The position numbers and the translations under genes were made by a program. A stretch of DNA of 64,000 nt from Vulcanimicrobiota bacterium. Its GTDB lineage: Bacteria > Vulcanimicrobiota > Xenobia > Xenobiales > JADMJV01. How positions within the stretch are numbered: the first letter of the stretch is position 1; each line of letters starts with the position of its first letter. The stretch covers positions 353,362-417,361 of the forward strand of contig JBFWNU010000004.1 of the NCBI GenBank assembly GCA_050250895.1. The letters are read 5' to 3'. Under the pieces are notes generated by a model. The model was not told where the DNA came from and did not search any database. It worked only from the letters and a program-made list of their open reading frames with translations. Shown piece after piece: positions 2,887 to 25,852 of the stretch.

Positions 2887-2903
2887 TTGCCATAGAGGGC
2901 TAG

Positions 2904-6070: not shown

Positions 6071-6073
6071 GGC

Positions 6074-9667: not shown

Positions 9668-10896
9668 GCTGCTTCTGAGCGGTACCTCGCCCAGACCGCC
9701 ACGGCCAGATAAGCGGCCAGGAACGCCTCGCAGGCAAGCGTGGCCGACACGGCCCCCTTCCACGAGTAGAGCGGGATCAAGTAAGCATTGAGGCCGACGT
9801 TGAGGACGGCCGTGAGCAGCATGGCTTTGCCACGGCCACGTTGCAGGTCTGCGCCGGTGAGAACAGAGCCGGCCAGCTCCTGGGCGATTTTCAGGCCGGG
9901 CAACAGGCAGAGCAGGTGGACCACCGGGATGGTATCCGAGAACTTCGGCCCTAAAAGGATGGGAATTACCGGAGCGAGCAGCCACAGAAGCGCCGCCGTT
10001 CCGCCAGCGTAGGCCAGGGCCGCTGGAACCAGCCCCCGAGTCAACTTGAGTGCTCCCGCCACTCCCTCGGCCCCGGCCTGAAAGTATCTTCGATACATGG
10101 TACGATTCAAGGCCAACAGGGGGGTCAGGCTGACCTGAACGATCCGATAGGCCGCCCCATACAGTCCCGCCGCATCGGCCGTGGCCAGCCGCAGCAACAT
10201 CGCTTTATCGGCATCATTGTTGATCTGTTGGCACGCCTGGGTCATCGAGAAATCGAACCCATCCGACCGGATCACCGCAAAGCTAGACCACTCGATGGCG
10301 GGGGCGTTGAAATGAAAGCGAATCAGTCCATAGGCCAACAAAGCGGACAACAGTCCGGCCGTGACGTAGAAGTTCAGGTAAAACGCCGGGGTGGGCGATT
10401 CGGCCAGGCAGACGAAGACGATCACGGCCACCAGGCGAAAGGCGAAGGGCAGGTGATTGACCAGAGCGGCCATCTTCATGTTGCCGACCGCGTTAAAGGC
10501 CAGCGAAAACCCCTCCGCGATCTTGGTAAAGAACAACTCGCTAAACCCGGTGGCCAGCACGATGGCCAGCCCGAGTTCAGCCGGAAAGAGCCAACGACTG
10601 GCGCAGCCGAGCCCCAGACACAGCGCCAGGGCAGCCACGAAATTCAGCAAGACCATGCGCCCGAGGCAAACCTCTACGCTAGTTTGAGTTCGGGAGACTT
10701 CCCTGACCATGAGCTGAGGCGTGCCCAGACTGGAAAAGGGAGCAAGAATCCCAAAGATTGCGATGACCCCGATTAAGACACCGTAGTCTGACGGCCCAAA
10801 GGTTCGCGCCAGCAACAGGAAGTAAATGGATCGTCCCACCACGTTCGCCACCTGCCCTAAAAGGTTCCAGGTCATCTCGCGCCGACGACTGGTCAT
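9664..10896 (-). CDS. Polysaccharide flippase (Wzx, MOP superfamily)
   Basis: 410-aa highly hydrophobic ORF with about 12 predicted membrane helices; position inside polysaccharide locus; 4-bp overlap with downstream gene end. Confidence 0.8.
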   Translation of the reverse strand: MTSRRREMTWNLLGQVANVVGRSIYFLLLARTFGPSDYGVLIGVIAIFGILAPFSSLGTPQLMVREVSRTQTSVEVCLGRMVLLNFVAALALCLGLGCASRWLFPAELGLAIVLATGFSELFFTKIAEGFSLAFNAVGNMKMAALVNHLPFAFRLVAVIVFVCLAESPTPAFYLNFYVTAGLLSALLAYGLIRFHFNAPAIEWSSFAVIRSDGFDFSMTQACQQINNDADKAMLLRLATADAAGLYGAAYRIVQVSLTPLLALNRTMYRRYFQAGAEGVAGALKLTRGLVPAALAYAGGTAALLWLLAPVIPILLGPKFSDTIPVVHLLCLLPGLKIAQELAGSVLTGADLQRGRGKAMLLTAVLNVGLNAYLIPLYSWKGAVSATLACEAFLAAYLAVAVWARYRSEAA

Positions 10897-12038
10897 GGGA
10901 CGCGGGGGCCACTCCTTCTAACCTCGTCGTAGATTCTTTCCAGCTTACGAGTCTGGGCCTCGAGGTCAAAGTTGGCCACGGCATGGTCGCGGGCCGCTCG
11001 ACTCATGGTTTGCCAGAGCCTGTCGTCGGCGAGCAGTCGCCGACCGAACTCGACGGCCCGCGGGACCGCGTCTTGAGGGAACAGAAAGCCAGTGCGCTCC
11101 TCGGACACCCCTTCGGGGATACCTCCGAGTCGGGTGGCCAAGACCGGCGTGCCGCAGCTTTGGGCCTCGATAAAGACCAGGCCGAAAGCCTCGACCGCTC
11201 CCGAGGGCATCGCCCGACTGGGACCGATCAGGGCTTTGGAGCGCGCCAGCATGGCCCGGATCTCGTCATCGGGCAGGACGCCCATGAAGTCGGCGTTGCA
11301 TCCCAGCGACTCGGCTAGCAGCGTCAGGGCGGGTCGTTCGGGACCATCGCCCACAATCTTCAACCGTAGATCGGCAAAGGTTTGCTGCAGCCGGGCCGCG
11401 ACCCTGATGGCCACATCGCACCCCTTATCGGGCACCAGCCGCCCCACAAAGGCCAGCCAGTTCTGTCTGGGCTCGCTCTCGGGCAGGGGCGCAAAGACGT
11501 CGGTGTCCACACCGATGTAGTGCGTCTCGAGCAAGGCCGGGGAGAAGCCCTTGCGGATGAGTTCGGTTCGCAGCGCCTCGGACACGCACAAAATCCGACA
11601 AATGGAGCCCGGAAGTCGCCATTTGTTGAGGGCATAGTAGCGACCGAGCCACCCCACTTCTTGGAGCAGAGAATGGCGAAAAGCGTCATAACCGTGATAG
11701 GTCACGACCAGGGGCAGGCCGAGAGCCCTGGCCAGGGGCAAGGCCAAAAGGCCATTGGGACCGAAGTGGGCGTGGATGATGGCCGGGTTGCGTCCTCTCA
11801 ACTCGGCCAGCAGGCGGTGGCTGGGTAGTCCCAACCCGAAGGCCAGAATCCCCAGCCACGATTCGTGCTCGCACAGCAACACTGATTCGGCCGTGAGCCA
11901 GTCTCTTTGCCCGCCCGGTCGCAGCCCCAGGAAAAGAGGCCGGTAGTCACGCAGCGCCTCTCCCTGTCTCTTGATAAACGCCTGGGAAAAGGGCAACAGT
12001 CTATCGGTGAAGATTATGGCGGTGGGTCGGGCGCTCAA
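10893..12038 (-). CDS. Glycosyltransferase family 4; start codon uncertain (TTG at 12038 proposed)
   Basis: C-terminal 380 aa of the 10893..12656 frame are a clean GT4 (IIHAHF ... AFVGRLVPDKG ... FGLVFIEAQSCGTPVL); the N-terminal ~200 codons are Arg/Pro-rich and lie antisense-overlapped with the GT1 gene; no in-frame ATG until deep in the domain; TTG at 12038 overlaps the GT1 stop as TTGA. Confidence 0.7.
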   Translation of the reverse strand: MSARPTAIIFTDRLLPFSQAFIKRQGEALRDYRPLFLGLRPGGQRDWLTAESVLLCEHESWLGILAFGLGLPSHRLLAELRGRNPAIIHAHFGPNGLLALPLARALGLPLVVTYHGYDAFRHSLLQEVGWLGRYYALNKWRLPGSICRILCVSEALRTELIRKGFSPALLETHYIGVDTDVFAPLPESEPRQNWLAFVGRLVPDKGCDVAIRVAARLQQTFADLRLKIVGDGPERPALTLLAESLGCNADFMGVLPDDEIRAMLARSKALIGPSRAMPSGAVEAFGLVFIEAQSCGTPVLATRLGGIPEGVSEERTGFLFPQDAVPRAVEFGRRLLADDRLWQTMSRAARDHAVANFDLEAQTRKLERIYDEVRRSGPRVP

Positions 12039-13270
12039 GGTTGCTCGAGTTGTACACCGGAGACCCCAGCTCCTGGATTCTGGTCGAGCAGGACCTGGCA
12101 GGTCAGGTCGGTGGCATTGGCCGCAACGGCGCCAGGACGGTCCTGGGCCAGGAGGCGGGCCAGCCTGGTTCGCATGCCCGACAGGCCGGTCGAACCCAAA
12201 TTCAATCCGGCGCCGAGAGCCTCGAGCCGGGCCGCGTTGTCGGGCTGGTCGTGGGCCATCGGGACCAGCAACTGTGGGATCCCGGCCGCCAGCGCCTGAG
12301 CCGCGGTGCCGACTCCGCCGTGGTGAATCACCACTCTGGCCCGAGCAAACAAGGCGCCAAAGGGGGCCGTGGCCACATGGAAAACATCGTCCTCGGGCGC
12401 CGTGGGAGGCAGGTGAGGCGATACCAACACCACTCGCAGGTTCAGACTGCGGCAAGTGGCCACCGCCTGCCGAAAGCTCTCTTGACCGTGCCTTTGCCCG
12501 GTGCCAAAGGTGACGACGGCCGGAGCGGGACCGGCCGCCAGAAATGCTTCGAGTTCGGACTGCAGCGATTCGTCGTCGCCCAACAGAAAGCCGGTCTGAA
12601 ACCCGGGCCTGGGCCAATCGGCGGCGGGGGCGGCGAACCACCGAGGAAACAACCACAGGTGAATGGCGCCGGCCTGCATCCAGGCGAGCACCTTGGGGGC
12701 CGGGGCCAGGCCTGCGCTCATCCGCACTTCACGGAGGGCGGGCTCTACCAGGCGGTCTATGTTGACTTCGTTGAGCCGGTAGAAGAGCCAGCGAATCCAA
12801 CGAGGCATGGGGGTCACCCACTCCCAACCGCAGATCAGGGGCGTGGCCTCGAGGCTGACGATGCCGGCCGGCGCAAACCAGAGGCAGAAACGGGGCCAAT
12901 CCAGCAACTCTTGCAGGATGCGTGTGGCCGGAAGGGCCAGATAGGTCGAGACCAACCTCCACTCCTGGGCCCGGGGCAGCGAAAGTCCCAGCTCTACGAT
13001 CGGCCGGGTCGCTGGCACCATCAAGCCTTGCAAGACCACTCCGAAAAACCGGCGCGGATGCCAAAAATCGGGGTTGGATAGGGCGGCATCGTAGAGTTCT
13101 CTGGAGAGCACCGAGGTAAAGTCCAGTCCGGCGGCTTCGGCCAGGTCCTGGTAGGGCTCGGGCCCGGCTAGAATCACCGTGTGCCCCCGACGGCATAGCT
13201 CGCCGCCCAGCCGAATGCACGGCCTGATGTCTCCGCCGGTTCCCAGGGCGACCAACAGAAAATTCACCAA
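12035..13270 (-). CDS. GT1-family glycosyltransferase (MGT/UDP-glycosyltransferase-like)
   Basis: 411 aa; N-terminal GTGGD, C-terminal nucleotide-sugar motif VVIHHGGVGT ... HDQPDNA typical of GT1 enzymes. Confidence 0.8.
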   Translation of the reverse strand: MVNFLLVALGTGGDIRPCIRLGGELCRRGHTVILAGPEPYQDLAEAAGLDFTSVLSRELYDAALSNPDFWHPRRFFGVVLQGLMVPATRPIVELGLSLPRAQEWRLVSTYLALPATRILQELLDWPRFCLWFAPAGIVSLEATPLICGWEWVTPMPRWIRWLFYRLNEVNIDRLVEPALREVRMSAGLAPAPKVLAWMQAGAIHLWLFPRWFAAPAADWPRPGFQTGFLLGDDESLQSELEAFLAAGPAPAVVTFGTGQRHGQESFRQAVATCRSLNLRVVLVSPHLPPTAPEDDVFHVATAPFGALFARARVVIHHGGVGTAAQALAAGIPQLLVPMAHDQPDNAARLEALGAGLNLGSTGLSGMRTRLARLLAQDRPGAVAANATDLTCQVLLDQNPGAGVSGVQLEQP

Positions 13271-13366
13271 CCCAGGGCTGCCTGTTCGTTAGCGGTCTCA
13301 TTCGCAGGCCTGGCTCGGTGGGGGTCGAAGGTCGCCCCCAGTCCACAGGTAGGCCGGCGATCCCAG

Positions 13367-14635
13367 GTGTTAGCAGTCACGCCTTTTGAAAAACTCTTCC
13401 TCTATTGCGACGAGGTCGCGGGCCCGACGGCCTTCGAGATCGGGCTCGAATTTACCGCTGACTTCGACCACCAGAAACTGACCGCGGCTCTCGACCGGGC
13501 CGTGACGCGCCACCCGATGCTCTCGGCCCGCATCGAAGAGCATCGCGGGCGGTTGGTCTGGGTGCCTCAGCCTGAATACCACGTTCCGCTCTTGCCGCCC
13601 GCTACCGGCAACCTCCTTTCGCCCTTGCACGGGGGCGGAGTGCGAGTTCGGCTTTCTGACCTGGGGCCGGGCACGCGTCTGCTCTTCGAGATTCATCACA
13701 GTTGCTGTGATGGCCGAGGGGCGTTCTTGTTTCTGGACGACTTTCTCCAGGACTACCACGAACTCTGCGGCGGCGCCGCCCGACGCCGCCCCAAAAGAGA
13801 TCTGTCGGTACTGGAAAGGAGGGGGCAGGTCGAGGTTTCGGAGACCAGCCTCGAACTTTCCCTGTGGCTGAGGCTGCGCCTAGCCTGGGACTTTCTGAGC
13901 ACTCGGCCCCAGGGCTTTGGCGATGTGAAGCGACCAGCTCGGTCGCACCGCCCGTTCTCTCAGCAGCTGTTTTCGCCAGCCCTGAGTTCGCTCATCGACA
14001 GCCGCCTGGCTGGCTCAGGGGCCAATCTTAACGACCTCGGTCTGGCCTTGCTGCTGCGGACGCTGGCCTCTACCTCGTCCTCCTCCCAGCCGCTGCGACT
14101 GCTGGTGCCGACCAGCCTGCGTCGCCTCTCTGACTTCAGGGCCGGGGCCAGCCACCGCACCAGCTTCGCCTTTCTCACCCGGGCCCCACACGATTGCCTC
14201 GGCGGCTTTGCCGACCTGCTCGAGTGGACCGTGGGCGAGACTCGCTTCATCAAAGCGGCCCGTCCCGACTACACCACCGTGTTGGGCGTGAATCTGCTCG
14301 AGCGATTGCGCCTGCTCCGTCGCTTCTTGAGCTGGCCCCAGGCCCGCAACACGGCCGTGCTCTCTTTCATGGACGATGTCACCCGACTCCTCTCGCTCAA
14401 GCGTTTTCCCAGTTCTGCCCAGGGTGTGGGCATTGGCGACCAGGTGTTGAGCGGAGTCTTCGGCGTGCCCCCCACCCGACCGGGCACGAGTCTCAGCTTT
14501 GGCCTGGGCCGCTTCCAGGGGCGCGTCAACGTCTGTCTGAAGGGGGAGCCCCAGGTGGTGTCCGAGCAACTCGAAGCCCAGCTCATGGCGGCCTATACCA
14601 AAGGTTGGCAGGCTTGGGCCGAGGGCGCTCTCTAG
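13367..14635 (+). CDS. Condensation-domain-like acyltransferase (HHxxxDG family; PapA5 / WS-DGAT-like)
   Basis: 422 aa; catalytic-type motif HHSCCDGRG about 110 aa from the N-terminus; convergent with the SDR gene and divergent from GT1; start codon appears to be GTG. Confidence 0.6.
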   Translation: MLAVTPFEKLFLYCDEVAGPTAFEIGLEFTADFDHQKLTAALDRAVTRHPMLSARIEEHRGRLVWVPQPEYHVPLLPPATGNLLSPLHGGGVRVRLSDLGPGTRLLFEIHHSCCDGRGAFLFLDDFLQDYHELCGGAARRRPKRDLSVLERRGQVEVSETSLELSLWLRLRLAWDFLSTRPQGFGDVKRPARSHRPFSQQLFSPALSSLIDSRLAGSGANLNDLGLALLLRTLASTSSSSQPLRLLVPTSLRRLSDFRAGASHRTSFAFLTRAPHDCLGGFADLLEWTVGETRFIKAARPDYTTVLGVNLLERLRLLRRFLSWPQARNTAVLSFMDDVTRLLSLKRFPSSAQGVGIGDQVLSGVFGVPPTRPGTSLSFGLGRFQGRVNVCLKGEPQVVSEQLEAQLMAAYTKGWQAWAEGAL

Positions 14636-15381
14636 AGCAGGCTGATACCGCCGTCCACCACCAGCGTCTGGCCCTGAATCAGGTCGGCCAGGGGGCTCGA
14701 CAGAAACAGGACACTGTCGGCCACATCGTCACAGGTCAGCTTCCGTCCGGCCGTGAGCAGGTGCTGGTCGACTGTTTCGAAGAGAGCCTCGGGCAAGGCT
14801 TTAGTCGATTGGGTTCGCACCAGCCCGGCCAGCACGACATTGAAATTGATCTGCGGAAACTCCAGAGCCAGGTGACGCGTCAGGCTCTCCAAAGCAGCTT
14901 TCGAAGCCCCGATCATGCCATAGTTCTCGATGGCTTTGCGAGCTCCGTGGCTCGACAGGCTCACCACCTTGGGTCGTCCCGAACCGGCTTGCATCCAGGG
15001 CAAGGCGGCCTGCACCAGACTCACCAGGGCCATGGCGTTGACGTTCATGGTGGTCTTGAACTGCTCCGGAGTGATCGAGCGCAGCGAGTGAAAACCGCCC
15101 CGGGCCACATTGCTCACCAGGATGTCCAGTCGGCCGAATCGTTGACCCACAAAGTCGAGCATGGCCTCAATGTCCTCGGCTTCGCCGATGTCGGCTTTGA
15201 CCACCACCGCGTCTCGGCCCAATTGCTGCACCTCTTCGGCCACCTGCTCGGCGGCCCTGGGCGAGGCCAGATAGTTGATGACCACGTCGGCCCCGGCCCG
15301 AGCCAGCTTGAGGGCGCAGGCCCTCCCGATGCCGCGCGAGGCTCCCGTGACCAGCGCCACCTTTCCGTCCAATTCGATCAT
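14632..15381 (-). CDS. Short-chain dehydrogenase/reductase (FabG-like)
   Basis: 249 aa; Rossmann motif VTGASRGIG near N-terminus; 4-bp overlap with PKS stop. Confidence 0.9.
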   Translation of the reverse strand: MIELDGKVALVTGASRGIGRACALKLARAGADVVINYLASPRAAEQVAEEVQQLGRDAVVVKADIGEAEDIEAMLDFVGQRFGRLDILVSNVARGGFHSLRSITPEQFKTTMNVNAMALVSLVQAALPWMQAGSGRPKVVSLSSHGARKAIENYGMIGASKAALESLTRHLALEFPQINFNVVLAGLVRTQSTKALPEALFETVDQHLLTAGRKLTCDDVADSVLFLSSPLADLIQGQTLVVDGGISLL

Positions 15382-18300
15382 GCGCCGATTCGGTTGGGGA
15401 CGCCGAGCCAGGCCAGCCGATAGTCATGGGCCCGCGCCATGAGCTGGCCATCGTCCCCCCAGAGATGAATTTCGAAGCGCTCCTCGCCTATCCATTGCAC
15501 CCTGACGACACAGCGCTCGCCCGGGCGGGTGAGGCGCCCCACCCACAACTCGCCGATAGTCGCTGGCACCGTGTGCCCTTCGCGCACGCTCTTCCAGGCC
15601 AAGATTCCCGCCGCATAGAGACATCCGTCCAGGATGGCCGAGGGCAGCCGCCACCCTACTGTAGAGCGGTGAGAGCCGGCCAGTTCCACCAAGGGTGGGG
15701 CCACCAGTTCGCCCCAGAGAGTCTCTCCCTCTATTTGATAGCGTCGCAGCGTTCGCAACGAGGGCCCGTGGTACATCTGACCCGAGTCGGAATAGGCGAC
15801 CGGCTCCCATTGGTCGGGAACCTCGGGGCAGGCCAGTGACTCGACCGGCATCTCGTTCACCAACTCTACCTCGAGCAAAGTTCGGCGCGCCTCTAACACC
15901 GTTCCGTCGCGGGCCAACTGGGCATAGAGCAGCCTCACCGTATTGTCGTCACGAGCCACTTCCACCTGGCGTGGACGCCCCTCGTGGAACTTCAGAAACC
16001 CTGCCGGTCGGACTCGCCTCAAGCCGATGGGGCCAGGACCTCGAGATTGCGCCTCGCAGGCCAACTCGAGGGCCACCACCAGGGGTAGTACCGGAACGTC
16101 TTCCACCCGATGGTCTCGCAAGAAGGCTTCCTGCTCGGGATCGAGCCATACCTGATTGGAGGTTCCCAGCAGGGGTCGGGCGGCCTGCTGCGTCTCGAAC
16201 AGCTCGGCGTGATAGAATCTGCGGTAATAGTGCTCATCGGTGATGAGCACCTCGGCTCTGGGGGCGCCGGCCTGCAACTCGGCGATGAGGTGAGCGACCC
16301 CCTCGGCCGCTGGCATGAAGTTCATGTTCACTAACTCGAGACCCAGCTGGCTCTCGCCTTTGACGGCCATTCCGACATCGCCCCAGGCGTGCCAATGAAA
16401 GGTCACCGCGCCGACCTCCGGCCGTTGCTGACGATAATAGGCCACTAGCTTGGCCATCATCTCGTTGGCGGCCGAATAGTCGGCGTGCCCGTTGGCCCCG
16501 AACCGACCACTGATCGAGCCGAAGGCGACAAAGAAGTCGAGCGGGTCTGCAGCCATCAGGCTCATCAAGTTGTGGGTTCCCAGGACCTTGGCTCCCAAGC
16601 ATTCCCCCACCTTTTGGTGGTCCTTCTGCTCGAACTTCGAATCGCGGGTGGCCCCGGCCCCATGCAGGACGCCGCGAATGGGTCCATCGGCCCGGATCGC
16701 CTGAAGAGTTTGGGCCAGCCGGTCCCGATCGCTCAAGTCGCAACTGTGATAGTGCGCTTCCAGGCCGGCTTCGTGGAGGGCCACCAGGGCCGCCTCGATC
16801 TCGAGGCCCTTCTCGACGGCTTCCCAGCTTTTGACCGGGTTGGCTGCTCCCTGAGAGCGAGCCGTATCCATCACTTCCAGCTTCAATCCACGGCGGTCCT
16901 GTAGCCAACGGGCTCGCCACTCGGGCGGATGCGAGGGACCGGGGGCCCGTCCGATGAGATGGAGCTTCAATCCGAAGCGGCCGGCCAGTTCGCGGGCGAC
17001 GTGGGCAGTGATGCCCCGGGCCCCGCCGGTGCAGACCCAGTTACCGCGCGGCAACACCGCCTGGCCGTCCCGGTCGTCCACTGGCTGGGGTTCGGCCGTC
17101 ACCAGGGCCCGTTGGCCGGCGATTTCACCGATCTCGAGCTCATAGTTGCGGTGGCAAAGCTCTCGTAGCACGCGCTGGCCAGCGTCTGAGGCACTGATAT
17201 CAGGGCCGCAGTCGATAACTTTCACGGTCAAATCGCGATGTCCGGCTACCCAATTCTCGATGCGCATCGACTTTAAAAGGCCGGCCAGAAATCCTCCGTC
17301 AGGACCCTCTATGGGCGTTCCAAAGCCGAAGCCGCCCCCGAGTCTGGTCACGGCCACCACGGTGGCCTCGTCCACCAGGCCGTCTCCCTTGACCCGCCGC
17401 AACCATTCCTGGCAGAGCCAGAACGGAGTCGTGATGCGGGCGGTGTAATGCTCTGGCCGCTCCAGTTCGCCCGGCACCCAGGCGGTGGTGATAAACAGGT
17501 GGGGTAGCGGCCCGAGCGCTTCGAGACCTCGCTTGAGTTCCGTCAAGGCCCGGTGGGTATCGAGGATATGGACCGGCCCCCTGAGGCGGCTCGCGAGTTC
17601 ACGACTCAAAGCGTTGTCTCCGATGATCAGCGAAGCTCCGCCAAGGCTGCGAGTGGGCGAGAGCGGGAGGGGACATTCGACCATCCTCATCAGGTAGCGC
17701 TGAGTCTGGTCGGGGGTCGAGCCGGGCAGGGTCCCGTGGCGCTCTTTGTAGCCGATCAGGTTGTAGAGATGGACTCCCGCTCCCTCGGCCAGGCCGCGAA
17801 GCTCTTCCAGGGTGGCCGGGTCGAGGCCGGCCTCGAGGTCTTTCCCAGGCCGCCTTTGCCAGGGAAAGACCTTGAGCGCATCGTGGCGCAGAGCCGCGCG
17901 GATGGCTTGGGATTGCGCCCGGCCACGTAGCCGAGCACTTTCATAGGCCTGCCCGCTGACGCGGGGCAGGAGCGGCGCCTCGGCCTCGGTCGGGGCCTCG
18001 GTCACCCCGATATGCTCGAGAATGTCTTTGAGGCTTCGGAGGTTGGCCAGCTCTTTGTCAGAGGTGTCTAGACCGAAGGCATCGCGCAGCTCGCCCAGCA
18101 ATTGGGTTCTTTTGATACTGTCGATGCCGAGGTCGGCCTCGAGTTCCCATTCCAGCTTGAGCGCGCTACGTGGATAGCCCGTCAGGTCGGCAACATGGTC
18201 GAGGAGAAAGGCTTGAGCGCGGGCGTCGATGGCCGTGGTGCGTGTCTTGCCGCTAAGGCTGTCTTCCCCCAGCACGCGCTCGAGGCGGGGCCGGGTCGCG

Positions 18301-21300
18301 TCGAAATGATCGATGCTTCCGAGCCCTCTCTGGGTGGTCGTCGAGCGCGCCTGGGGCAGCCGGTCGACGCATTCGAAGGCGGCTTCGAGGCGGGCCCACT
18401 GGAGGGCCCGCTGGCGACGCGGGTGGTCGACCGAAGTCACGATCACATTGCGCTCCTTCAAATTTTGGCGGGCCAGTTGAGTCAACACCTGTTTAGGGCC
18501 CACTTCGACGAGCAGGCCGACTCCGTCGTTCACGAGTTGATCCAGGAGCTGACCAAATCGGACCGGCTCGACCAGTTGCCGAACCAGATTCTGGCGGATG
18601 ACCTCGACCTGGGTAGCCGGCTGATTGGTCACGTTACTGTAAAACAGGATCGTGGGTGGACGCAGCTCGAGCCTGGCCAGCCGGGCTTCGAGGGCCGTCT
18701 GAGCCGATGCCACCAAAGGAGTGTGAAGGGCGCCCGGAACCTTGAGCCGGCGAGTGGGCATGCTGTCTTTTCTCAGCTCGCTCTCCAGGGCGGCCAGCTG
18801 ACTGTTAAGGCCGCCCACCACCGTCTGACCGGCGGCGTTATAATGGGTGAAATAAAGTCCTAGCTCGGCCACCAGAGGCTCGAGCCGTTGGGGAGGCGCG
18901 GCCACGGAAAGCAGACCTCCGTCGGGCGAGGCTGCTAGCAGAGCCTGAGCGCGGACCTGGGTCAGCTCCAGAGCGTCTTCGAAGGTCATGACCCCGGCCG
19001 CCACCAGGGCAGGAATCTCGCCAAAGCTGTGGCCACACACACAGTCGGGCCGATAGCCTTGCTCGTCGAGCACGGCGAAAGCGATCTGATCAGCGATCAA
19101 GACGGCCAACTGGGTGACCACCGGGTCGGCGTCAAGGCGCTCATCCGCTTGCCAGGCCAGGAGTCCAAAGCCAGGCAGGCCCATCTTCTCGAGGGCAGCG
19201 TCGGCCCGGCGCACCACGGCTGCCGCGGCCGCGGACCCGCTCACCAGGTCTCGCAGCATGCCTTGATACTGAGAGCCCTGACCCGAGAAAAGATAAGCGA
19301 TCCGCGGTCGAGCACGGCCGAGTTCGCAGTAGAAGATACCCTGCTCTTCGAGCAGGCGCCGGCCCTTGGCTTCGGCCAACTGGTCAGCTGCCAGAGCCAC
19401 ATTCTGGGCCAGGCGAGGCTGGTCGGGAGCCACGGCCACCAGGCGGACCGGGTCGGCCTGCGCCAGGCCCTGGCGACCCTCGCGAAGGTTGGTCGCCAGT
19501 TGGTTCGGGTCGTGGGCACTGTAGCGAGCCACCCGGGCGGTGACGGATGACCGGGGGCCGGCGCCCTCGAAGATGAGCTGGGCAGCCTGGCCGGTCTCGG
19601 CCAGGCCGGCCAGCACCACTCTCTCTTGCGGATGGCACAAGCTAGCTCTCAACAACGAGAGCATCCCCCCGGCCGCATGCAGAGCCCCGAATTGGGCGGC
19701 CAATGAGGGCAAGAGGGGCTTGCCGCAGACCCGCTCCAAAACCGGGGCCAACTCGGCCGAGGGGGCATCAGCCAGGGCAAGGCCCGGGTCAGACAAGGCA
19801 GGGCCGACCACCAATTCGAGGGCCGACTCGGGGGTGAGTCCGCTGGCGAGTTCTGCCGTGTGCAAAAGGCCATAGATTCGGTCCCCGTCCTGCTGGGCTC
19901 GGTCGAGGGTCTTGAGGATGACCACTCCGACCCCTTCGCCTGGCAACTGGGCGCTCAAACGACCTTTGAGGGCAAGACTCTCGAACCCCACCAGGTCCAT
20001 GGAGTGCTGGCCGGCCGCCACCACCACGGCTGAGCAATCGCCGCCCCGCAGCAGGTCACAACCCACCTTCAAGGCCGCCTCGGACGATGTCTCGCCCACA
20101 TCGAGAGCCAGGGCTCCACCGCGCCAATCGTGGGCTTTAGTCAATCGTGAAGCGAGAGAGCTACAGGTAAAGCCTCCCGTCTCGTCGAGCAGTGCCGAGT
20201 ATCGCTCGAAGAAAATCCGGTCGAACTGCTCGAGCAATCCGGGCTTCGAGAGGCCCAACTCAGCCAGCAGCCTGGCCACCTCACGGCGAATCTCGGCGTG
20301 GCGAAAGCCCACTTGCATCTGATTGCCGAAGTCCGAACAAAAACTCGCGCCCACCACCACGGCTGTCGAGTTTGCCTCGAGTGGGGAGCCCAGCTCTGCC
20401 AGGGCCTGATTGGTCGCATCCAACAGCATCAGCTGGACCGGATTGGCCCGCTTGACCTGCTTGGGAGGAATCTTGTGGCCGACGGCGTCGAACTCGAAGT
20501 TAGTGATGTAGCCACCGCGACGGGTGGGCGTATGCCAGGGCTGGAGCTGCTCGGCCAGGCCGGCGTCACTGGGCCAGCGACCGGCCGGCGGTTCGCCGAG
20601 TTGGGACTGGCCGCTGCCGAGCAACTCTTTCAACTCGCCCAGGTTGCGAGCGCCGGGGACGACGACGCCGCGCCCGACCACCGCCACCAGCGGCTCGTCG
20701 GCGGCCACCGGCTCGACCGGTCCGCCTGGCTCTTCGACCACCAGGTGAACGTTGAGACCGCCCACCCCAAAGGCGCTGACACCGGCTCGGCGAGTCTCTC
20801 CCTGACGGGGCGCAGGCCAATCGGACGGCTCTCGCTGGACCACGAAAGGTAGCCGCGACCAGTCCACTCCGGGGTTGAGCTGGTCGACGTTGATGGTGTG
20901 GGGAATGCCGCGGTGTCTCAAGGCCAGCACGACCTTCAACAAACTGGCCAGTCCGGCCGTCTCGAGCGTATGCCCCAAATTGGACTTGACACTGCCGATG
21001 GGTATCTGGCGTCCTTTCAGATGAGGCCCGAAAAAGGTCGACAAAGACTCGAGTTCGGTGGCGTCACCCAGCTGAGTGCTGGTGGCGTGGGCTTCGATGT
21101 ACTGGACGCTGGCCGCGTCGACTCCGGCGTAGCAACGTTGCAGCGCCTCGAGCTGTCCCTCGGCACGGGGGGCCCACAGACTGCGACCGCGACCATCCGA
21201 AGACAGACCGATCGAGCGGATCACCGCTTGCATCGAATCCCCGTCGCGGCGGGCCGCATCGGCCCGCTTGAGGACCATTGCCACCACTCCTTCGGAGCTG

Positions 21301-22088
21301 ATCAGGCCGTCGGCTTCGGCATCGAACGGGCGCGAGCCGGACGCGCTGCACGATTGGGCGTGGGAAAAGAGAATGAGGCTCTCCGTCTTGTTGTAGGAGG
21401 ACCCTCCGACGATGGCCAGGTCGATTTCGCCCCGGGTCAGAGCCAGGGCGGCCAGGGAGAGAGCCACCAACGACGAGGCACAGGCGGCGTCTACCACCAG
21501 CTGAGGGCCGGCCAACCCCAGTTGCCGGACCAGCAGGCCCGCGATCCATTGGGCCTCGAGACACGGTTTGCCTTCCCCGTCGCGGCGAGGCCGTCCGCGG
21601 CGTAGCTGGCCGGTCAGGGCTTGCATGGCGGCCTGACGCGTCTGGGTCGGCAAAGCGCGAAAATCGGGCAAGCACTCGAGCAACTCCGCCACCTGAGCGG
21701 CCAGGGTGGCTACCACCAGTTCTCCCCCCCGGGGCGTTCCTCCGGAGTGACCGGCATAGACACCGACTCGCTGGCCTTGCAGCCCGTCAGCATAGCCCGC
21801 CTCGGCCAGCGCTTCCAGAGCCACATCGCAAAAGATGCGGTGGCTCAAGTCATAGGAATCATCTCCCGAGCGGGCCTGGCAAGACTTGAGGCAGCCGCCG
21901 ATGCTGGAGTAAGTCTTTCCCACCTGACCGCGGGTCGAATCAAAGTAAAGTTCTCGGTCCAGTCGCTCGGGGGGCAACTCGCGAACCGCATCATGGCCGT
22001 TCCAGAGCAACTCCCAGAATTCGGCCGGGTTGTCCGAATCGGGCAGGCGGCAGCCGCACCCCAATATCGCGATAGGAGCGATCTTCAT
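15378..22088 (-). CDS. Type I polyketide synthase, single module: KS / KS-like / AT / ACP / KR / DH
   Basis: 2236 aa; KS DAACASS + HATST + GHT; AT GQGSQ + GHSFGE; ACP LGIDSI; KR TGGARGIT + YSAAN; C-terminal HRVEDVPVLP hot-dog motif; 4-bp overlaps with flanking genes. Confidence 0.9.
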   Translation of the reverse strand: MKIAPIAILGCGCRLPDSDNPAEFWELLWNGHDAVRELPPERLDRELYFDSTRGQVGKTYSSIGGCLKSCQARSGDDSYDLSHRIFCDVALEALAEAGYADGLQGQRVGVYAGHSGGTPRGGELVVATLAAQVAELLECLPDFRALPTQTRQAAMQALTGQLRRGRPRRDGEGKPCLEAQWIAGLLVRQLGLAGPQLVVDAACASSLVALSLAALALTRGEIDLAIVGGSSYNKTESLILFSHAQSCSASGSRPFDAEADGLISSEGVVAMVLKRADAARRDGDSMQAVIRSIGLSSDGRGRSLWAPRAEGQLEALQRCYAGVDAASVQYIEAHATSTQLGDATELESLSTFFGPHLKGRQIPIGSVKSNLGHTLETAGLASLLKVVLALRHRGIPHTINVDQLNPGVDWSRLPFVVQREPSDWPAPRQGETRRAGVSAFGVGGLNVHLVVEEPGGPVEPVAADEPLVAVVGRGVVVPGARNLGELKELLGSGQSQLGEPPAGRWPSDAGLAEQLQPWHTPTRRGGYITNFEFDAVGHKIPPKQVKRANPVQLMLLDATNQALAELGSPLEANSTAVVVGASFCSDFGNQMQVGFRHAEIRREVARLLAELGLSKPGLLEQFDRIFFERYSALLDETGGFTCSSLASRLTKAHDWRGGALALDVGETSSEAALKVGCDLLRGGDCSAVVVAAGQHSMDLVGFESLALKGRLSAQLPGEGVGVVILKTLDRAQQDGDRIYGLLHTAELASGLTPESALELVVGPALSDPGLALADAPSAELAPVLERVCGKPLLPSLAAQFGALHAAGGMLSLLRASLCHPQERVVLAGLAETGQAAQLIFEGAGPRSSVTARVARYSAHDPNQLATNLREGRQGLAQADPVRLVAVAPDQPRLAQNVALAADQLAEAKGRRLLEEQGIFYCELGRARPRIAYLFSGQGSQYQGMLRDLVSGSAAAAAVVRRADAALEKMGLPGFGLLAWQADERLDADPVVTQLAVLIADQIAFAVLDEQGYRPDCVCGHSFGEIPALVAAGVMTFEDALELTQVRAQALLAASPDGGLLSVAAPPQRLEPLVAELGLYFTHYNAAGQTVVGGLNSQLAALESELRKDSMPTRRLKVPGALHTPLVASAQTALEARLARLELRPPTILFYSNVTNQPATQVEVIRQNLVRQLVEPVRFGQLLDQLVNDGVGLLVEVGPKQVLTQLARQNLKERNVIVTSVDHPRRQRALQWARLEAAFECVDRLPQARSTTTQRGLGSIDHFDATRPRLERVLGEDSLSGKTRTTAIDARAQAFLLDHVADLTGYPRSALKLEWELEADLGIDSIKRTQLLGELRDAFGLDTSDKELANLRSLKDILEHIGVTEAPTEAEAPLLPRVSGQAYESARLRGRAQSQAIRAALRHDALKVFPWQRRPGKDLEAGLDPATLEELRGLAEGAGVHLYNLIGYKERHGTLPGSTPDQTQRYLMRMVECPLPLSPTRSLGGASLIIGDNALSRELASRLRGPVHILDTHRALTELKRGLEALGPLPHLFITTAWVPGELERPEHYTARITTPFWLCQEWLRRVKGDGLVDEATVVAVTRLGGGFGFGTPIEGPDGGFLAGLLKSMRIENWVAGHRDLTVKVIDCGPDISASDAGQRVLRELCHRNYELEIGEIAGQRALVTAEPQPVDDRDGQAVLPRGNWVCTGGARGITAHVARELAGRFGLKLHLIGRAPGPSHPPEWRARWLQDRRGLKLEVMDTARSQGAANPVKSWEAVEKGLEIEAALVALHEAGLEAHYHSCDLSDRDRLAQTLQAIRADGPIRGVLHGAGATRDSKFEQKDHQKVGECLGAKVLGTHNLMSLMAADPLDFFVAFGSISGRFGANGHADYSAANEMMAKLVAYYRQQRPEVGAVTFHWHAWGDVGMAVKGESQLGLELVNMNFMPAAEGVAHLIAELQAGAPRAEVLITDEHYYRRFYHAELFETQQAARPLLGTSNQVWLDPEQEAFLRDHRVEDVPVLPLVVALELACEAQSRGPGPIGLRRVRPAGFLKFHEGRPRQVEVARDDNTVRLLYAQLARDGTVLEARRTLLEVELVNEMPVESLACPEVPDQWEPVAYSDSGQMYHGPSLRTLRRYQIEGETLWGELVAPPLVELAGSHRSTVGWRLPSAILDGCLYAAGILAWKSVREGHTVPATIGELWVGRLTRPGERCVVRVQWIGEERFEIHLWGDDGQLMARAHDYRLAWLGVPNRIGA
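15381..16226 (-). other. PKS dehydratase-like hot-dog domain, approx. residues 1955-2236
   Basis: HRVEDVPVLP (HxxxDxxxxP variant of the DH HxxxGxxxxP motif) at ~1993-2002. Confidence 0.55.
16344..17651 (-). other. PKS ketoreductase (KR) domain, approx. residues 1480-1915
   Basis: NADPH-binding VCTGGARGIT (~1685-1694) and catalytic YSAAN (~1871). Confidence 0.75.
17994..18236 (-). other. PKS acyl carrier protein (ACP) domain, approx. residues 1285-1365
   Basis: Phosphopantetheine attachment motif ADLGIDSI (Ser ~1324); only one such motif found. Confidence 0.75.
18399..19301 (-). other. PKS acyltransferase (AT) domain, approx. residues 930-1230
   Basis: FSGQGSQ at residues ~934-940 and active-site GHSFGE at ~1019-1024. 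Confidence 0.8.
19854..20693 (-). other. PKS second KS-like segment lacking catalytic Cys (chain-length-factor-like), approx. residues 466-745
   Basis: KS-like N-terminal half (VAVVGRGVVVPG, NPVQLMLLDA, LDVGETSS in place of Cys motif, GEGVGVVILK) that then loses KS similarity. Confidence 0.5.
20733..22082 (-). other. PKS ketosynthase (KS) domain, approx. residues 3-452
   Basis: Active-site Cys in DAACASS (residue ~203), His in EAHATST and NLGHT. Confidence 0.8.
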
Positions 22089-23458
22089 GCGGCCCCTAGT
22101 AGATCGACGACGTGCATCAGCATTTTTAGCGCTTCATCCAGGCGCTCGGAGTCCCCGACGAGCACCAGCTCACCTGCATAGAGAGCTTGCTCTGGGGTCA
22201 GCTGGCGGCCTGCCAGGTGAGCCAGCGTAGGCAGGCTGCAAAACGCTTCAGGCGCGCATTCGACTCTTGTCAGGGGAGTGCGTCCCGTTTCGGCAAAACC
22301 CCATTGTCCCCCTTCGGGTCCGGGCACGGTCAAAAAGAGCCGGGGTTCTGAGTTTGAGGCCAGCGGAATTCGCGAAAGTCGCCGGGCCAGATCCCACTCC
22401 GGCGCAGCCTGAAAGCGATGTTCCAGGGCGAAACCGACCAGCCGTTTAAGCGCCTCGCCATCCAGACGAGGGCAAGGCACGCCACTGTGCTCGAGGGTCA
22501 GCTGGCAGTCAAAGGTCGGATGGTTGCTGAGATAGGGTCGATAGGTCGACACCGCGGCCGGCCCGTCGAGCGATTGAACCGATGGCGGTTGGTCATCCTC
22601 GCTTCGACAGGCGCGCACAGCGTCATACAGAGCTTGGAAGCTGGTGGGATGAGGATTGGTCAGATGATAATATTGCTGGGCCGAGCGCTCCTGGCCCAGC
22701 AACGCGATGACCACCTGCGAGACCCAGTCCACCGGAACCAGGTTGATCCCGTCCTCGGGGTCTTCGACCCCTACCGTTTCTAGTAGTGAACGACTGCTCG
22801 AGGCCGAGTTCAGCCAGGTCAGCAAGAGGAGCGGGTACGCTCCCTGAAAATTCGGGGTGTAGCCGGTGGAAGACTCGCCTACGATGATGGAAGGACGATA
22901 GATGGTGAAACGCCGCAGAAACTCGGCCTGGGCAACCAGCGACTCGGCCAGGGCCTTGCTGCGCTCGTAGTCATTGTTGAAGACCTGGTGAAGGGGCACG
23001 GGTCGGGGCTCAAGGTTGGGAACGGTGGCCCCGCAGACGTAGGCGGTCGAAATCAAGTGAAACTCGTCGAGGTCACACCCGCGACTCAGTTCGAGCAGGC
23101 GGGCGGTTGCGTCGACATTGGTCAGATAAGGTTCTCCACTGCCATCGGCTCGAAACTTCACGGTGGCTGCCGAATGCAACACCCGGCAGCAGTGGTTCTT
23201 GAGCCACTCACGAGCCTGCTCGTCAAGACCGAGATCGGGTTGGCGCAGGTCACCCTCGATGAGCTGGGGACGAGGGAGCTGGCGGGCCAGCCCTCTTTCC
23301 AGTCGCTGGCAACAAACCTCGATCCTTTCGGCTGCAGACGCTCCGTTCGTCGGGCGAGCCAAAACCGCGAGGTTCAAGCCTTGCAATAGACCGTCACGCA
23401 TCAAAAACTGGCCCAGCAGGCCGGTTGCTCCGGTGAGTAGCGTAAAGGTTCTATCCAT
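22085..23458 (-). CDS. Stand-alone thioester reductase-domain protein (NAD(P)-dependent fatty acyl reductase-like)
   Basis: 457 aa; LLTGATGLLGQFL Rossmann motif at N-terminus, YERSK catalytic-type motif; no ACP segment; stop overlaps PKS start by 4 bp. Confidence 0.7.
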   Translation of the reverse strand: MDRTFTLLTGATGLLGQFLMRDGLLQGLNLAVLARPTNGASAAERIEVCCQRLERGLARQLPRPQLIEGDLRQPDLGLDEQAREWLKNHCCRVLHSAATVKFRADGSGEPYLTNVDATARLLELSRGCDLDEFHLISTAYVCGATVPNLEPRPVPLHQVFNNDYERSKALAESLVAQAEFLRRFTIYRPSIIVGESSTGYTPNFQGAYPLLLLTWLNSASSSRSLLETVGVEDPEDGINLVPVDWVSQVVIALLGQERSAQQYYHLTNPHPTSFQALYDAVRACRSEDDQPPSVQSLDGPAAVSTYRPYLSNHPTFDCQLTLEHSGVPCPRLDGEALKRLVGFALEHRFQAAPEWDLARRLSRIPLASNSEPRLFLTVPGPEGGQWGFAETGRTPLTRVECAPEAFCSLPTLAHLAGRQLTPEQALYAGELVLVGDSERLDEALKMLMHVVDLLGAA

Positions 23459-23532: not shown

Positions 23533-23590
23533 CAAGTCTAAGACAGTATACGAGATCCTCCGAGATTTCAAGTCTTTGGCCAAGTCTTCA
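23533..23590. promoter_or_regulatory. Three direct copies of CAAGTCT (plus two CGAGAT) in the region upstream of the thioester reductase-PKS-SDR operon
   Basis: Copies at ~23533, ~23569 and ~23581 in the 130-bp gap between the hydroxylase gene end and the reductase start codon (23458, minus strand). Confidence 0.3.
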
Positions 23591-24676
23591 AGCCTGACCA
23601 CGGGTCTCGATGGTGGGTCTTTCGATAGCGGTCTGGGCTTCTTTCCAGCGAACTCCACCGGGCAAGAGGTTGTAGGCTCGCTGGAGTCGAGCGATGGCGC
23701 GGGTTTCGGCCGTCGACAAACAAGGGTGCCACAGGTTGAGAAAGAGGACCACCCTGAGCTGATCGCTGTGATTCCAGACCTCGTGCACGAAAGCGTCGTC
23801 AAACACCAGCACTTCGCCCTCCTCCCAGGTGGCCACCTGACCGCCGACTCGCAGGCCACAGTGGTCGGGCACCAACAGACCCAGATGGAAGCGAAGAATA
23901 CCGTTGATGGTGCCTACATGAGGAATGATTCGGCTCTGGGGGTTGAGGGCCGAGAACAGGATGAACTCTTTCTCGAGCCGGGGCAGACTGGCCAGCAACC
24001 CGCTCGTCAGGGGACAGCGTCGACAGTTGTCTTCCACCGCCTCACCCTGAATGTAGAAGTGGAAGGTGTTCCAGCCCGGCATCAGGTTGCCGTACTCCGT
24101 GCGATAGTTGCCAAAACCGCGCGGCTCCGCCAAGAGATCGTTCAACTCGTGGCGAATGGTCTGGCAATGCTCGCGCAGGATGGAGGTCCAGGGAAAATCT
24201 GAAGCCTGGTAGAGCCGGCGGGCGGGAATGCCAGGCAAAAAGAAGTGGGGGCGTTGATGGGGGTCGGTAAACTCGGTGCAAGGCCAATCGTCTTGATGGA
24301 AAAAGACGTCGAGAAAGCCGGACCGGTGGAACAGCGCTTCGGCCACGTTGCGATATCCGAGCCTGGCACAACCCCGTTGGAACGTGGCGTGGGCGTCCAG
24401 TCCGAACACCGCTCGGGCGAAGGCGTCGGTCTGGGCTGGTCGGAACTGGTTGGCCAGGTCACGCCAGAACCGGGCCGTGGGGTTGCTGACGAAGGCCCCT
24501 CCCAGGGCCCAGAGCCGATGCAGCCCCCACACCGACAGCCCGAGCGCGGTGGGGCCGCTCGCCGCCACCCTGGCCCAGACCCGGCGCAGCCAGGCCGGCA
24601 GACGCACCGGAGAACCATCCAAACCCAGCTGGTCGTAGCTCACCTGCATCAATTGTTCGAAAGTAGGTTGGGCCAC
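23588..24676 (-). CDS. Asp/Asn beta-hydroxylase-family Fe(II)/2-oxoglutarate oxygenase (LpxO-like)
   Basis: 362 aa; C-terminal cupin segment IPHVGTINGILRFHLGL ... DDAFVHEVWNHSD ... NLWHP resembling the aspartyl/asparaginyl beta-hydroxylase family. Confidence 0.65.
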   Translation of the reverse strand: MAQPTFEQLMQVSYDQLGLDGSPVRLPAWLRRVWARVAASGPTALGLSVWGLHRLWALGGAFVSNPTARFWRDLANQFRPAQTDAFARAVFGLDAHATFQRGCARLGYRNVAEALFHRSGFLDVFFHQDDWPCTEFTDPHQRPHFFLPGIPARRLYQASDFPWTSILREHCQTIRHELNDLLAEPRGFGNYRTEYGNLMPGWNTFHFYIQGEAVEDNCRRCPLTSGLLASLPRLEKEFILFSALNPQSRIIPHVGTINGILRFHLGLLVPDHCGLRVGGQVATWEEGEVLVFDDAFVHEVWNHSDQLRVVLFLNLWHPCLSTAETRAIARLQRAYNLLPGGVRWKEAQTAIERPTIETRGQA

Positions 24677-24979: not shown

Positions 24980-25852
24980 ATGCTATTTCTGGGAGCTGAC
25001 TGCAGCCGCCACAGCATCCATTGTGTGCTGGTCGACGCCGACGGCAGGGTCTGGCAGCGCACTCGAGCCCGTCGTCAGGGTCCCCTCGAGGCCGATCTGG
25101 CTTCGGCCCTGGCCCCCTGCTTGCAAGCAGCCACCGGACCGTTCGAAGCGGCCATCGCGGCCGAGGGTTGCGGGCCGTTGGCGCTGCCCGAGGGCGCCGC
25201 CAGCCTGTGGCAGTGCCGGCCCGAAGAAGCCCTGTTGTGTGGGGCGCTGGCCTGCCGGCCGGGGGTAGTCATCACCAGTGCCACCACGGCCCGCGCGCTG
25301 GGCATCGACCGCGGGCTAAAACCACGCCAACTCGAGCAAGATGGCGGCAGCGCCGGCTGGCTGGCCGAGCAGGGTCTAGCCTCGCGGGCCCAATCCCCGC
25401 GACTGGCCCAGGCAGTCCAACGTGTCTTTGGCTCGAAAGAGCCCGAAGGGGTGGCCCGACTGGCCTTTTGCCGCGAGGTGCTTGAACTGGCGACCTTTCC
25501 GGGTCCCGACCCCATCTGCCGGGCGCTGGTGCTCAAAGCCGCCCGCAGCCTGTGCGACCTGACTCGCTATCTGGTGCCACGGATCCAGACCCTCGAACGA
25601 GCCAGTTGGGCCGGGGTGGGCATGCGGGAACCGCTGCTCGAGGCCTATTTTCAAGAACTTCAGCAACATCTCCCCGGCCTGCCCTGGCGCCAGCCACGCT
25701 TTCCCGCCGAGGTGGGCTGCGCTCTGTTAGCGCAGGCTGGCTATCACGAACGCCAGCGCCGCGACGATCAGGCAGCCACCCCGCGCAGGGTCGGCCCCGA
25801 TGTCTGGCGCCACGTCTTTCGCAACCGCAAGCCCTTTCCTGAGTATGAATGA
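24980..25852 (+). CDS. Hypothetical protein
   Basis: 290-aa ORF in the coding strand series; N-terminus LFLGADCSRHSIHCVLVDADG weakly resembles sugar-kinase/ASKHA phosphate-1 loops, not assignable. Confidence 0.4.
   Translation: MLFLGADCSRHSIHCVLVDADGRVWQRTRARRQGPLEADLASALAPCLQAATGPFEAAIAAEGCGPLALPEGAASLWQCRPEEALLCGALACRPGVVITSATTARALGIDRGLKPRQLEQDGGSAGWLAEQGLASRAQSPRLAQAVQRVFGSKEPEGVARLAFCREVLELATFPGPDPICRALVLKAARSLCDLTRYLVPRIQTLERASWAGVGMREPLLEAYFQELQQHLPGLPWRQPRFPAEVGCALLAQAGYHERQRRDDQAATPRRVGPDVWRHVFRNRKPFPEYE

Follow-up and report, generated by a model that had tools for sequence, protein, structure and literature searches.

A putative one-polypeptide iterative lipid synthase with a chain-length factor domain and coupled reductase partners in a Vulcanimicrobiota genome

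A 64,000-nucleotide stretch of DNA from a Vulcanimicrobiota bacterium (GenBank contig JBFWNU010000004.1, positions 353,362 to 417,361; hereafter the window, with coordinates counted from its first nucleotide) carries a large type I polyketide synthase (PKS) gene at 15378-22088 on the minus strand. Our analysis indicates that this gene probably encodes an iterative, one-polypeptide type I fatty acid synthase (FAS)/PKS of the polyunsaturated fatty acid (PUFA)-synthase-like ("secondary lipid") kind, whose chain would leave the enzyme as a saturated long-chain aldehyde or alcohol by the action of a separate thioester reductase (TR). The assignment to this enzyme class is well supported. An earlier reading of the sequence (the original prediction) had favoured an iterative enzyme of the PUFA-synthase/HglE type over a modular one, and this is supported by (i) a predicted chain-length factor (CLF) that follows the ketosynthase (KS), (ii) an acyl carrier protein (ACP) domain located ahead of the ketoreductase (KR) and dehydratase (DH), (iii) the finding of no further PKS or nonribosomal peptide synthetase (NRPS) modules among the window open reading frames (ORFs) scanned with Pfam, and (iv) the presence of conserved TR and trans-acting enoyl reductase (ER) partner genes. 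The long aliphatic chain that it had named as the product also appears likely.

Domain layout of the synthase

The gene is a single ORF of 2236 amino acids (aa) with a third-codon-position GC content (GC3) of 0.76, a bias typical of real genes in 63% GC sequence. NCBI holds an identical protein, under a generic name, from a Vulcanimicrobiota (Eremiobacterota) metagenome-assembled genome (MAG). The ORF and its domains, including an acyltransferase (AT), are as follows.

15378-22088, minus strand: whole ORF, interpreted as a KS-CLF-AT-ACP-psiKR/KR-DH iterative type I FAS/PKS (ORF translation, Pfam, NCBIfam)
20709-22076, minus strand: KS1, catalytic ketosynthase, residues 5-460 (PF00109/PF02801/PF16197; C203, H334, K368, H373)
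19554-20705, minus strand: Cys-less KS-like domain, predicted CLF, residues 462-845, with a compact C-terminal half at 740-842 (PF00109, hhalign, AlphaFold2, Foldseek)
19299-19553, minus strand: KS-AT linker domain, residues 846-930 (beta-alpha-beta-alpha elements at 852-922 in the AlphaFold2 model)
18447-19298, minus strand: acyltransferase, FabD/MdcH-like, residues 931-1214 (PF00698, E 2e-40)
18003-18233, minus strand: single ACP, residues 1286-1362, with Ser1324 in LGIDSI (one PF00550 stretch; four-helix bundle in the AlphaFold2 model)
17088-17951, minus strand: helical segment, residues 1380-1451, and structural psiKR subdomain, residues 1463-1667 (AlphaFold2 model)
16239-17042, minus strand: ketoreductase, residues 1683-1950, with TGGARGIT (PF08659, E 3e-35)
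15405-16154, minus strand: PKS-type double-hotdog dehydratase, residues 1979-2228 (PF21089, PF14765; double-hotdog strands in the model)

In the Pfam search, the N- and C-terminal KS models matched residues 5-401 and were followed by a second PF00109 match, an AT at 932-1214, one PP-binding domain at 1294-1360, a KR at 1683-1903 and a PKS-type DH at 1982-2226, which bears out the order KS / KS-like / AT / ACP / KR / DH read earlier. All of the motifs quoted in that reading were located in the 2236-aa protein: DAACASS (200-206), LDVGETSS (662-669), GEGVGVVILK (717-726), GHSFGE (1019-1024), LGIDSI (1320-1325), TGGARGIT (1687-1694), YSAAN (1871-1875) and HRVEDVPVLP (1993-2002).

The four catalytic residues of KS1 were invariant in 40 homologues. 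The linker domain separates the CLF from the GQGSQ motif at 936, and the AT that follows matched the NCBIfam models MdcH (169 bits) and FabD (156 bits); it carries Ser1021 in GHSFGE, Arg1046, and His1122 in ALHTP. Among the aligned homologues, the KR catalytic residues Lys1834, Ser1858, Tyr1871 and Asn1875 were invariant, as were His1993 and Pro2002 of the DH, while Asp2154 was nearly so. An AlphaFold2 model of residues 1215-2236 (pLDDT 85) comprised the ACP, the helical segment, psiKR, KR and the double-hotdog DH; no ER domain was found in it. The psiKR and KR together superposed on PKS ketoreductases with a TM-score of ~0.8 on the target.

The second KS-like segment is a predicted chain-length factor

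The second KS-like segment had been thought to break off after GEGVGVVILK. When residues 461-931 were scanned alone, PF00109 gave a match (86 bits, E 3e-24) that was far beyond chance and covered the N-terminal half only. However, hhalign (with a profile built from 40 homologues) aligned KS1 with the second segment end to end (probability 100, E 5e-42, 371 columns), the exception being ~40 residues matching KS1 390-433 that are missing from the CLF. An AlphaFold2 model of residues 1-935 (mean pLDDT 91.6, pTM 0.88) likewise placed a compact second thiolase half at residues 740-842, so that the supposed break does not hold. This half comprises ~100 aa, compared to ~165 aa in KS1, and its length varies among homologues. 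Its mean identity to homologues is 19%, against 48% for the N-terminal half, which exceeds that of the ACP, DH and psiKR. Since the second thiolase half is shortened and poorly conserved, it was overlooked by sequence models and by the earlier reader alike.

The absence of the catalytic Cys from this segment was confirmed: C203 of KS1 is replaced by E666, within LDVGETSS. As for the other catalytic positions, H334 is deleted, and H373 and K368 are both replaced by Ala; the family consensus of the segment still has GH at the second His position. In 108 homologues, the Cys column is occupied by Asp (49) or Glu (28), and thus by an acidic residue in 77 of the 108.

A Foldseek search of the PDB with the model of residues 1-935 returned a sole whole-model match, the KS-CLF didomain of PfaC (6RIW; E 2e-60, TM 0.77/0.78), while the other matches covered one KS each, with a TM-score of ~0.4. 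By sequence, the segment matches the CLF half of 6RIW, in which Glu also occupies the former Cys position. Taken together, the full-length alignment with KS1, the AlphaFold2 fold and the 6RIW match indicate that the second KS-like segment is a whole, compact CLF domain, predicted to form an intramolecular pseudo-dimer with KS1 as in PfaC. The CLF-like KS partner proposed originally is therefore borne out by both the KS1 alignment and the 6RIW superposition. In contrast, the view that a fused, truncated KS-like piece is atypical had to be abandoned, as the segment appears to be whole and fused KS-CLF(-AT) proteins are usual in the superfamily, as in pfaC, hglC and the pfaBC fusions (PMC3098273). 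The unusual feature is that the KS-CLF sits ahead of AT-ACP-KR-DH as the sole KS.

Partner genes of the synthase

The genes adjoining the PKS gene that bear on its function are listed below.

22085-23458, minus strand: stand-alone thioester/acyl reductase (TR), 457 aa (PF07993, E 4e-43; TGATGLLG, YERSK)
14632-15381, minus strand: FabL-type enoyl-ACP reductase, 249 aa (NCBIfam FabL; Tyr-x6-Lys in ENYGMIGASK)
13367-14635, plus strand: free-standing condensation-family (PapA5-like) acyltransferase, 422 aa (HHSCCDG at 110-116)
12035-13270, minus strand: GT1-family (macrolide/UDP-glycosyltransferase-like) glycosyltransferase, candidate tailoring enzyme (PF06722, PF00201, PF04101; NCBIfam Rgt/MGT-type)
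23588-24676, minus strand: LpxO/OlsC-like Fe/2OG lipid acyl 2-hydroxylase, candidate tailoring enzyme (PF05118, E 3e-45)

The stop codon of the TR gene overlaps the start of the PKS gene by 4 nt (ATGA), and the start of the FabL-like gene overlaps the PKS stop in the same way. The TR carries no ACP, and 6 of 120 homologues have a TR fused N-terminally to the PKS. For the FabL-like protein, FabL (NF005975) was the best NCBIfam family by a lead of 72 bits (252.6 bits, compared to 180.8 for the next), and its Tyr-x6-Lys spacing is that of enoyl reductases, unlike the Tyr-x3-Lys of FabG.

To examine these partners in other genomes, 85 related loci were obtained by protein look-up and genome scan (given below with the prefix L). 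A FabL-like gene, 51-69% identical, followed the PKS gene in 38 of the 41 loci in which at least 3 kb beyond the DH was available. Where both flanks were covered (36 loci, drawn from Vulcanimicrobiota, Gemmatimonadota and Planctomycetota), TR and FabL occurred together in 33. Judged from these sequences, the TR and the FabL-type ER appear to be conserved, translationally coupled partners of the PKS. PF13561 matches in the Pfam lists of longer Planctomycete homologues had pointed to a fused FabL-like ER. This candidate was rejected, as none of the 120 homologues was matched in a phmmer search with the FabL-like protein; the PF13561 assignments are therefore KR cross-matches, and the ER is always encoded as a separate gene.

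The gene at 13367-14635, annotated as hypothetical, is convergent with the PKS gene. As a single sequence, its product gave weak Pfam Condensation and AATase matches at the motif, below the cutoff, whereas a profile of its family matched NRPS condensation (C) domains (1e-18), PapA5 (1q9j; 1e-10) and the WSD wax synthase (1e-5). We therefore assign it to the Condensation/PapA5/WS-DGAT acyltransferase superfamily. A homologue adjoins the PKS gene in 31 of the 85 loci, with HHxxxDG retained in 22, which makes this acyltransferase a frequent fourth partner, less universal than TR and FabL.

The remaining two genes are more local. A GT1 homologue was present in one other related locus only, and no hydroxylase homologue was found in the related loci examined. 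In NCBIfam, the hydroxylase matched OlsC (120 bits) and LpxO (79 bits), both under cutoff. An alkane-1,2-diol glycoside of the Roseiflexus/Thermomicrobium type, which the set of GT1, hydroxylase and TR might make, was considered as a speculative product and set aside; two members of this set, the GT1 and the hydroxylase, are unconserved in related loci.

Proposed pathway

From the domain anatomy and the partner genes, we infer iterative use of the enzyme, a saturated chain and reductive release. In the proposed scheme, the FabD-like malonyl transferase would load the single ACP, and the KS-CLF pair would elongate the chain, the CLF limiting its length. Each beta-keto group would be processed by the KR and the PKS-type DH, and the resulting enoyl intermediate would be saturated in trans by the coupled FabL-type reductase. 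After many rounds, the stand-alone TR would release a long-chain aldehyde or alcohol. From this, an esterified, glycosylated and/or hydroxylated envelope lipid might then be made by the PapA5-like enzyme, the GT1 and the LpxO/OlsC-like hydroxylase.

Several observations weigh against this scheme. The KS1 scored slightly higher with the generic type I PKS model of NCBIfam (302 bits) than with PfaA (256 bits), so that descent from the PUFA clade is not established for it. The NCBIfam matches of both reductases lie under their cutoffs: the TR reached 113 bits with TIGR01746 (cutoff 213), although its GxxGxxG-type and YxxxK motifs are present, and the FabL-like protein stayed at 252.6 bits (cutoff 328). 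The KS-CLF pairing comes from a predicted structure, not a solved one. A phosphopantetheinyl transferase (PPTase) gene was not found among the scanned window ORFs, and the chain might instead leave the synthase through the PapA5-like acyltransferase. The final product in this strain is speculative, since the GT1 and the hydroxylase are unconserved in related loci. Finally, no product or activity data for any member of the family were found in the literature, nor was a characterised enzyme with this architecture or gene cassette.

If the scheme is correct, the protein would be the most compact PUFA-synthase-type machine known, with one KS, one CLF and one ACP per chain and with the ER and the release reductase as small separate partners. 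It would then be attractive for studies on the structure and mechanism of chain-length setting by a CLF and of the service of all steps by one ACP.

Distribution of the family and number of ACP domains

The KS-KS' arrangement, in which KS' denotes the Cys-less segment, was present in all 120 of the best homologues. Word-indexed searches returned 6 matches for the CLF segment alone, and for the 422-aa acyltransferase only the query itself; an exhaustive HMMER search and tblastn on the loci were used instead. With the CLF segment as query, HMMER identified 555 representatives of 50% identity clusters (E<=1e-30), in which the segment lies mostly at ~490-880, just behind an N-terminal KS. It should be noted that some of the top matches are multi-KS modular PKSs whose score is summed over 8-11 stretches.

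The carriers named in 80 scanned genome loci were mostly Planctomycetota MAGs. The family was also present in Gemmatimonadota, Vulcanimicrobiota and a few Planctomycete isolates, and a more distant relative of 3558 aa occurs in Bremerella species. Carriers in culture include Maioricimonas sp. JC845 (L035), Thalassoroseus pseudoceratinae (P0035) and Bremerella volcania (P0260). The family is large, with at least several hundred 50%-identity clusters, and belongs mainly to phyla that are seldom cultured and whose envelopes are poorly known; its product might serve as a barrier lipid or be useful as a lipid biomarker. In genome-mining tables, PKS clusters of planctomycete genomes are given generic classes only ("type I PKS", "hglE-KS"), without a product (PMC13190842).

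The single ACP had been regarded as atypical. The presence of one ACP stands; its rarity does not, because this protein shares its one ACP (one DSL-type motif) with all 17 of its nearest full-length homologue clusters (P0002-P0018), which are 46-54% identical and 2164-2372 aa long. More distant relatives carry two to five ACPs.

Two sets of database labels call for caution. Several PKS-family contigs from lake and other MAG sets (L032, L036, L071, L075, L081 and L082) bear the label Candidatus Kuenenia, which may reflect binning or annotation errors, since the sequences resemble Pirellulales copies. The record "mas, partial [Symbiodinium sp. CCMP2456]" (P0261), a fragment of 487 aa, falls into a 90% cluster with Bremerella type I PKS (P0127/P0260) and is likely to be bacterial contamination of a eukaryotic assembly.

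Comparison with known synthases

In organization, the protein resembles PfaA merged with the KS-CLF part of PfaC. PfaC of Moritella marina (6RIW) also has an active KS directly followed by a Cys-less KS homologue. However, the PfaC didomain leads into FabA-type DH domains and has a second KS, that of PfaA, working beside it, whereas the didomain of this protein holds the only KS and continues into AT-ACP-KR-DH; its CLF has a much reduced C-terminal half, and sequence identity is 24%. With PfaA (TIGR02813), the protein shares a KS at the N-terminus and the order AT-ACP-KR-DH (PKS-type), with the ACP before the KR. PfaA was the only NCBIfam model that covered KS1 in one stretch (residues 3-453), and a single-stretch alignment of the N-terminal 180 residues of KS1 was obtained only with PfaC and PfaA. 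Against the PDB, KS1 matched CurL with 229 bits and 6RIW with 203 bits. The protein nevertheless falls outside the PfaA family, with 584.5 bits against a cutoff of 1010.1 and one PF00550 stretch instead of at least four tandem ACPs: PfaA has 4-6 or more ACPs, while this protein has one and carries the CLF between KS and AT. The ER also differs, being the FMN-dependent PfaD in PUFA synthases and an SDR of the FabL type in this locus.

The heterocyst glycolipid synthase (Hgl) of Nostocales is an iterative Pfa-like FAS/PKS that makes a very long chain, which is released by a TR as a fatty alcohol and linked to sugar by a glycosyltransferase; the resulting lipid layer is deposited along with the envelope polysaccharide (PMC3098273, PMC8064123, PMC11804610). 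The TR, the GT1 and the polysaccharide export locus around the PKS gene recall this system, in logic though not in gene organization. Hgl consists of about seven proteins (hglEA/F/G/D/C/A/B plus hglT), with the CLF on HglC (KS-CLF-AT) and the TR fused to an ACP (HglB). The window contains no such hglEA-F-G-D-C-A-B set, and instead encodes one polypeptide and a free, ACP-less TR in a non-cyanobacterial host, the two systems having been compared by gene organization.

Of the published systems, the Type R synthase described by Shulse & Allen 2011 from Koribacter, Solibacter, Elusimicrobium and Roseiflexus comes nearest, as judged from its description. It consists of one pfaA homologue with a CLF inside it and has an unknown product; its order is KS-MAT-CLF-ACP(3-6)-KR, with an adjacent PPTase gene (PMC3098273). 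In the present protein, the CLF is part of the same polypeptide, but the order is KS-CLF-AT, the number of ACPs is one and a DH is present; a PPTase gene adjoins the cassette in the Gemmatimonadaceae loci L001 and L005, and none was found among the scanned ORFs of the window. The enediyne PKSE shares with it the iterative KS-AT-ACP-KR-DH polypeptide and the single ACP. PKSE, however, has a C-terminal PPTase, no CLF, no ER partner and a polyene product, while this protein ends in a double-hotdog DH and contains a CLF. Mas/PapA5 of Mycobacterium likewise combines an iterative type I synthase with a free-standing 422-aa HHxxxDG condensation-family acyltransferase, as in this locus; Mas differs in its cis ER and in its order KS-AT-DH-ER-KR-ACP, and the acyltransferase of the window is only remotely PapA5-like (profile E 1e-10). 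On the whole, the protein is an architectural variant of known Pfa-like secondary-lipid synthases.

A wider proposal, which we put forward tentatively and consider doubtful as a whole, is that in Vulcanimicrobiota, Gemmatimonadota and Planctomycetota the TR-PKS-FabL set, often joined by the PapA5-like enzyme, suffices by itself to make very-long-chain fatty alcohols or diols. Its alkyl glycosides or wax-type esters would serve an envelope barrier layer laid down with the capsule, the equivalent outside cyanobacteria of the heterocyst glycolipid layer. The synthase would then be a minimal, possibly monomeric, one-ACP enzyme of the PUFA type, and its KS-CLF pair may have an origin independent of PfaC.

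Alternative explanations

The main rival to release by the TR concerns the exit step only. In it, the PapA5-like enzyme would transfer the ACP-bound long acyl chain, in ester or amide linkage, to a sugar, a polyol or the polysaccharide of the locus, giving a lipid anchor, and the TR would make the acceptor alcohol or handle part of the flux. The HHxxxDG acyltransferase that adjoins the PKS gene in 31 of 85 loci, the similarity of its family profile to PapA5 and NRPS C domains, and the Wza/Wzy/Wzz/flippase genes around the PKS in the window and in L003, together with capsule genes near L001 and L005, are consistent with such a route. We nevertheless regard it as rather unlikely: the acyltransferase is less universal than the TR and FabL pair (33 of 36 loci) and is absent from the Gemmatimonadaceae loci, and an acceptor is not identifiable. 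It is also improbable that the enzyme makes polyenes as an iterative PKS in the manner of the enediyne PKSE, yielding a conjugated polyene aldehyde or alcohol for want of enoyl reduction. The same KS-AT-ACP-KR-DH order and the lack of a cis ER domain would fit, but a FabL-type reductase with Tyr-x6-Lys is translationally coupled here and found in 38 of 41 loci, the PKSE ends in a PPTase and lacks a CLF, whereas in this protein a CLF is present and a PPTase absent, and enediyne accessory genes were not found among the neighbours.

Equally improbable is a role in a hybrid assembly line, as a single extension module or as its lipid-initiation part, with KS' as a decaying duplicate devoid of a function of its own. 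The best score of KS1 with the generic type I PKS model could be taken in this sense, as could the NRPS genes, the free ACP and the FabF-like KS that adjoin the cassette in L003. Such a role is contradicted by the ACP ahead of KR-DH, which is unlike the modular order, by the lack of any other PKS or NRPS module among the Pfam-scanned window ORFs, and by the N-terminal half of KS' itself, which is 48% conserved, has many invariant positions across phyla and is predicted to pair with KS1 in the manner of a CLF. A subunit of a canonical omega-3 PUFA (EPA/DHA) synthase would have the PfaA-like domain order, the partial TIGR02813 match (584 bits) and the PfaC-like KS-CLF seen here. This explanation is effectively refuted, because the isomerase and PfaD components are missing: neither a FabA-type DH/isomerase nor a PfaD-type ER was found in the protein or its scanned neighbours, the TIGR02813 score is below the cutoff, and there is one ACP with no tandem.

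Genomic surroundings

A Wzx/Wzy-type polysaccharide locus (370-12656) adjoins the PKS cassette in the window, with the following genes.

370-2886: Wza-like exporter with five SLBB domains
2904-4178: Wzy/O-antigen-ligase-like protein
4880-6070: GT4 glycosyltransferase
6074-7462: GH10 protein
7459-8685: GNVR/Wzz-like protein
9664-10896: flippase
10893-12656, minus strand: second GT4 glycosyltransferase, listed as an ORF of 587 aa, overlapping the GT1 gene (12035-13270) by ~620 nt

The first ~200 residues of the 587-aa GT4 ORF are rich in Arg, Gly, Pro and Ser, and its Pfam domains begin at residue 261; its true start is probably near 12040. The same association of the PKS with a polysaccharide locus was found in a second Vulcanimicrobiota genome (L003), and the capsule genes near the Gemmatimonadaceae loci L001 and L005 encode Wzi, Wza and Wzc. 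Among the window ORFs scanned with Pfam, no PPTase, PfaD or FabA-like gene was found.

Different genes accompany the cassette in other genomes. L001 and L005 have a common cluster (~6570-22400) of a Rieske oxygenase, PPTase, TR, PKS, FabL-like protein, radical-SAM protein (B12-binding in L001), GT2, a gene of unknown function and an MFS transporter, which suggests another decoration of the same alkyl core. In L003, two NRPS genes (A-PCP-TE and C-PCP-A), a free ACP, a FabF-like KS and a PapA5-like gene precede the cassette (32-8700), which hints at a lipopeptide-type hybrid. On the contig of the closest homologue (L004), sulfate-activation genes of the CysN/C-like and CysD/PAPS-reductase families lie directly upstream of TR-PKS-FabL (5550-8438), and a sulfated lipid or polysaccharide is possible there.

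Beside the cassette in the window, ORFs at 24980-25852, 26510-27973 and 27918-29066 lie on the opposite (plus) strand. No Pfam match was found for the ORFs of 290 and 487 aa that flank a methyltransferase gene beside the cassette, and a GH1 glycosidase that follows them covers only the first ~250 of the 453 positions of the family model. Further along, a 750-aa protein (32192-34444, plus strand) combines three receiver-domain matches with a following GGDEF diguanylate cyclase domain, and constitutes a c-di-GMP regulator near the envelope/polysaccharide region. A second small envelope-related group at 55168-60191 encodes a GNAT/FemAB-like acyltransferase, a YdjC-like deacetylase, a GT2 and a DUF2079 membrane protein with TPR.

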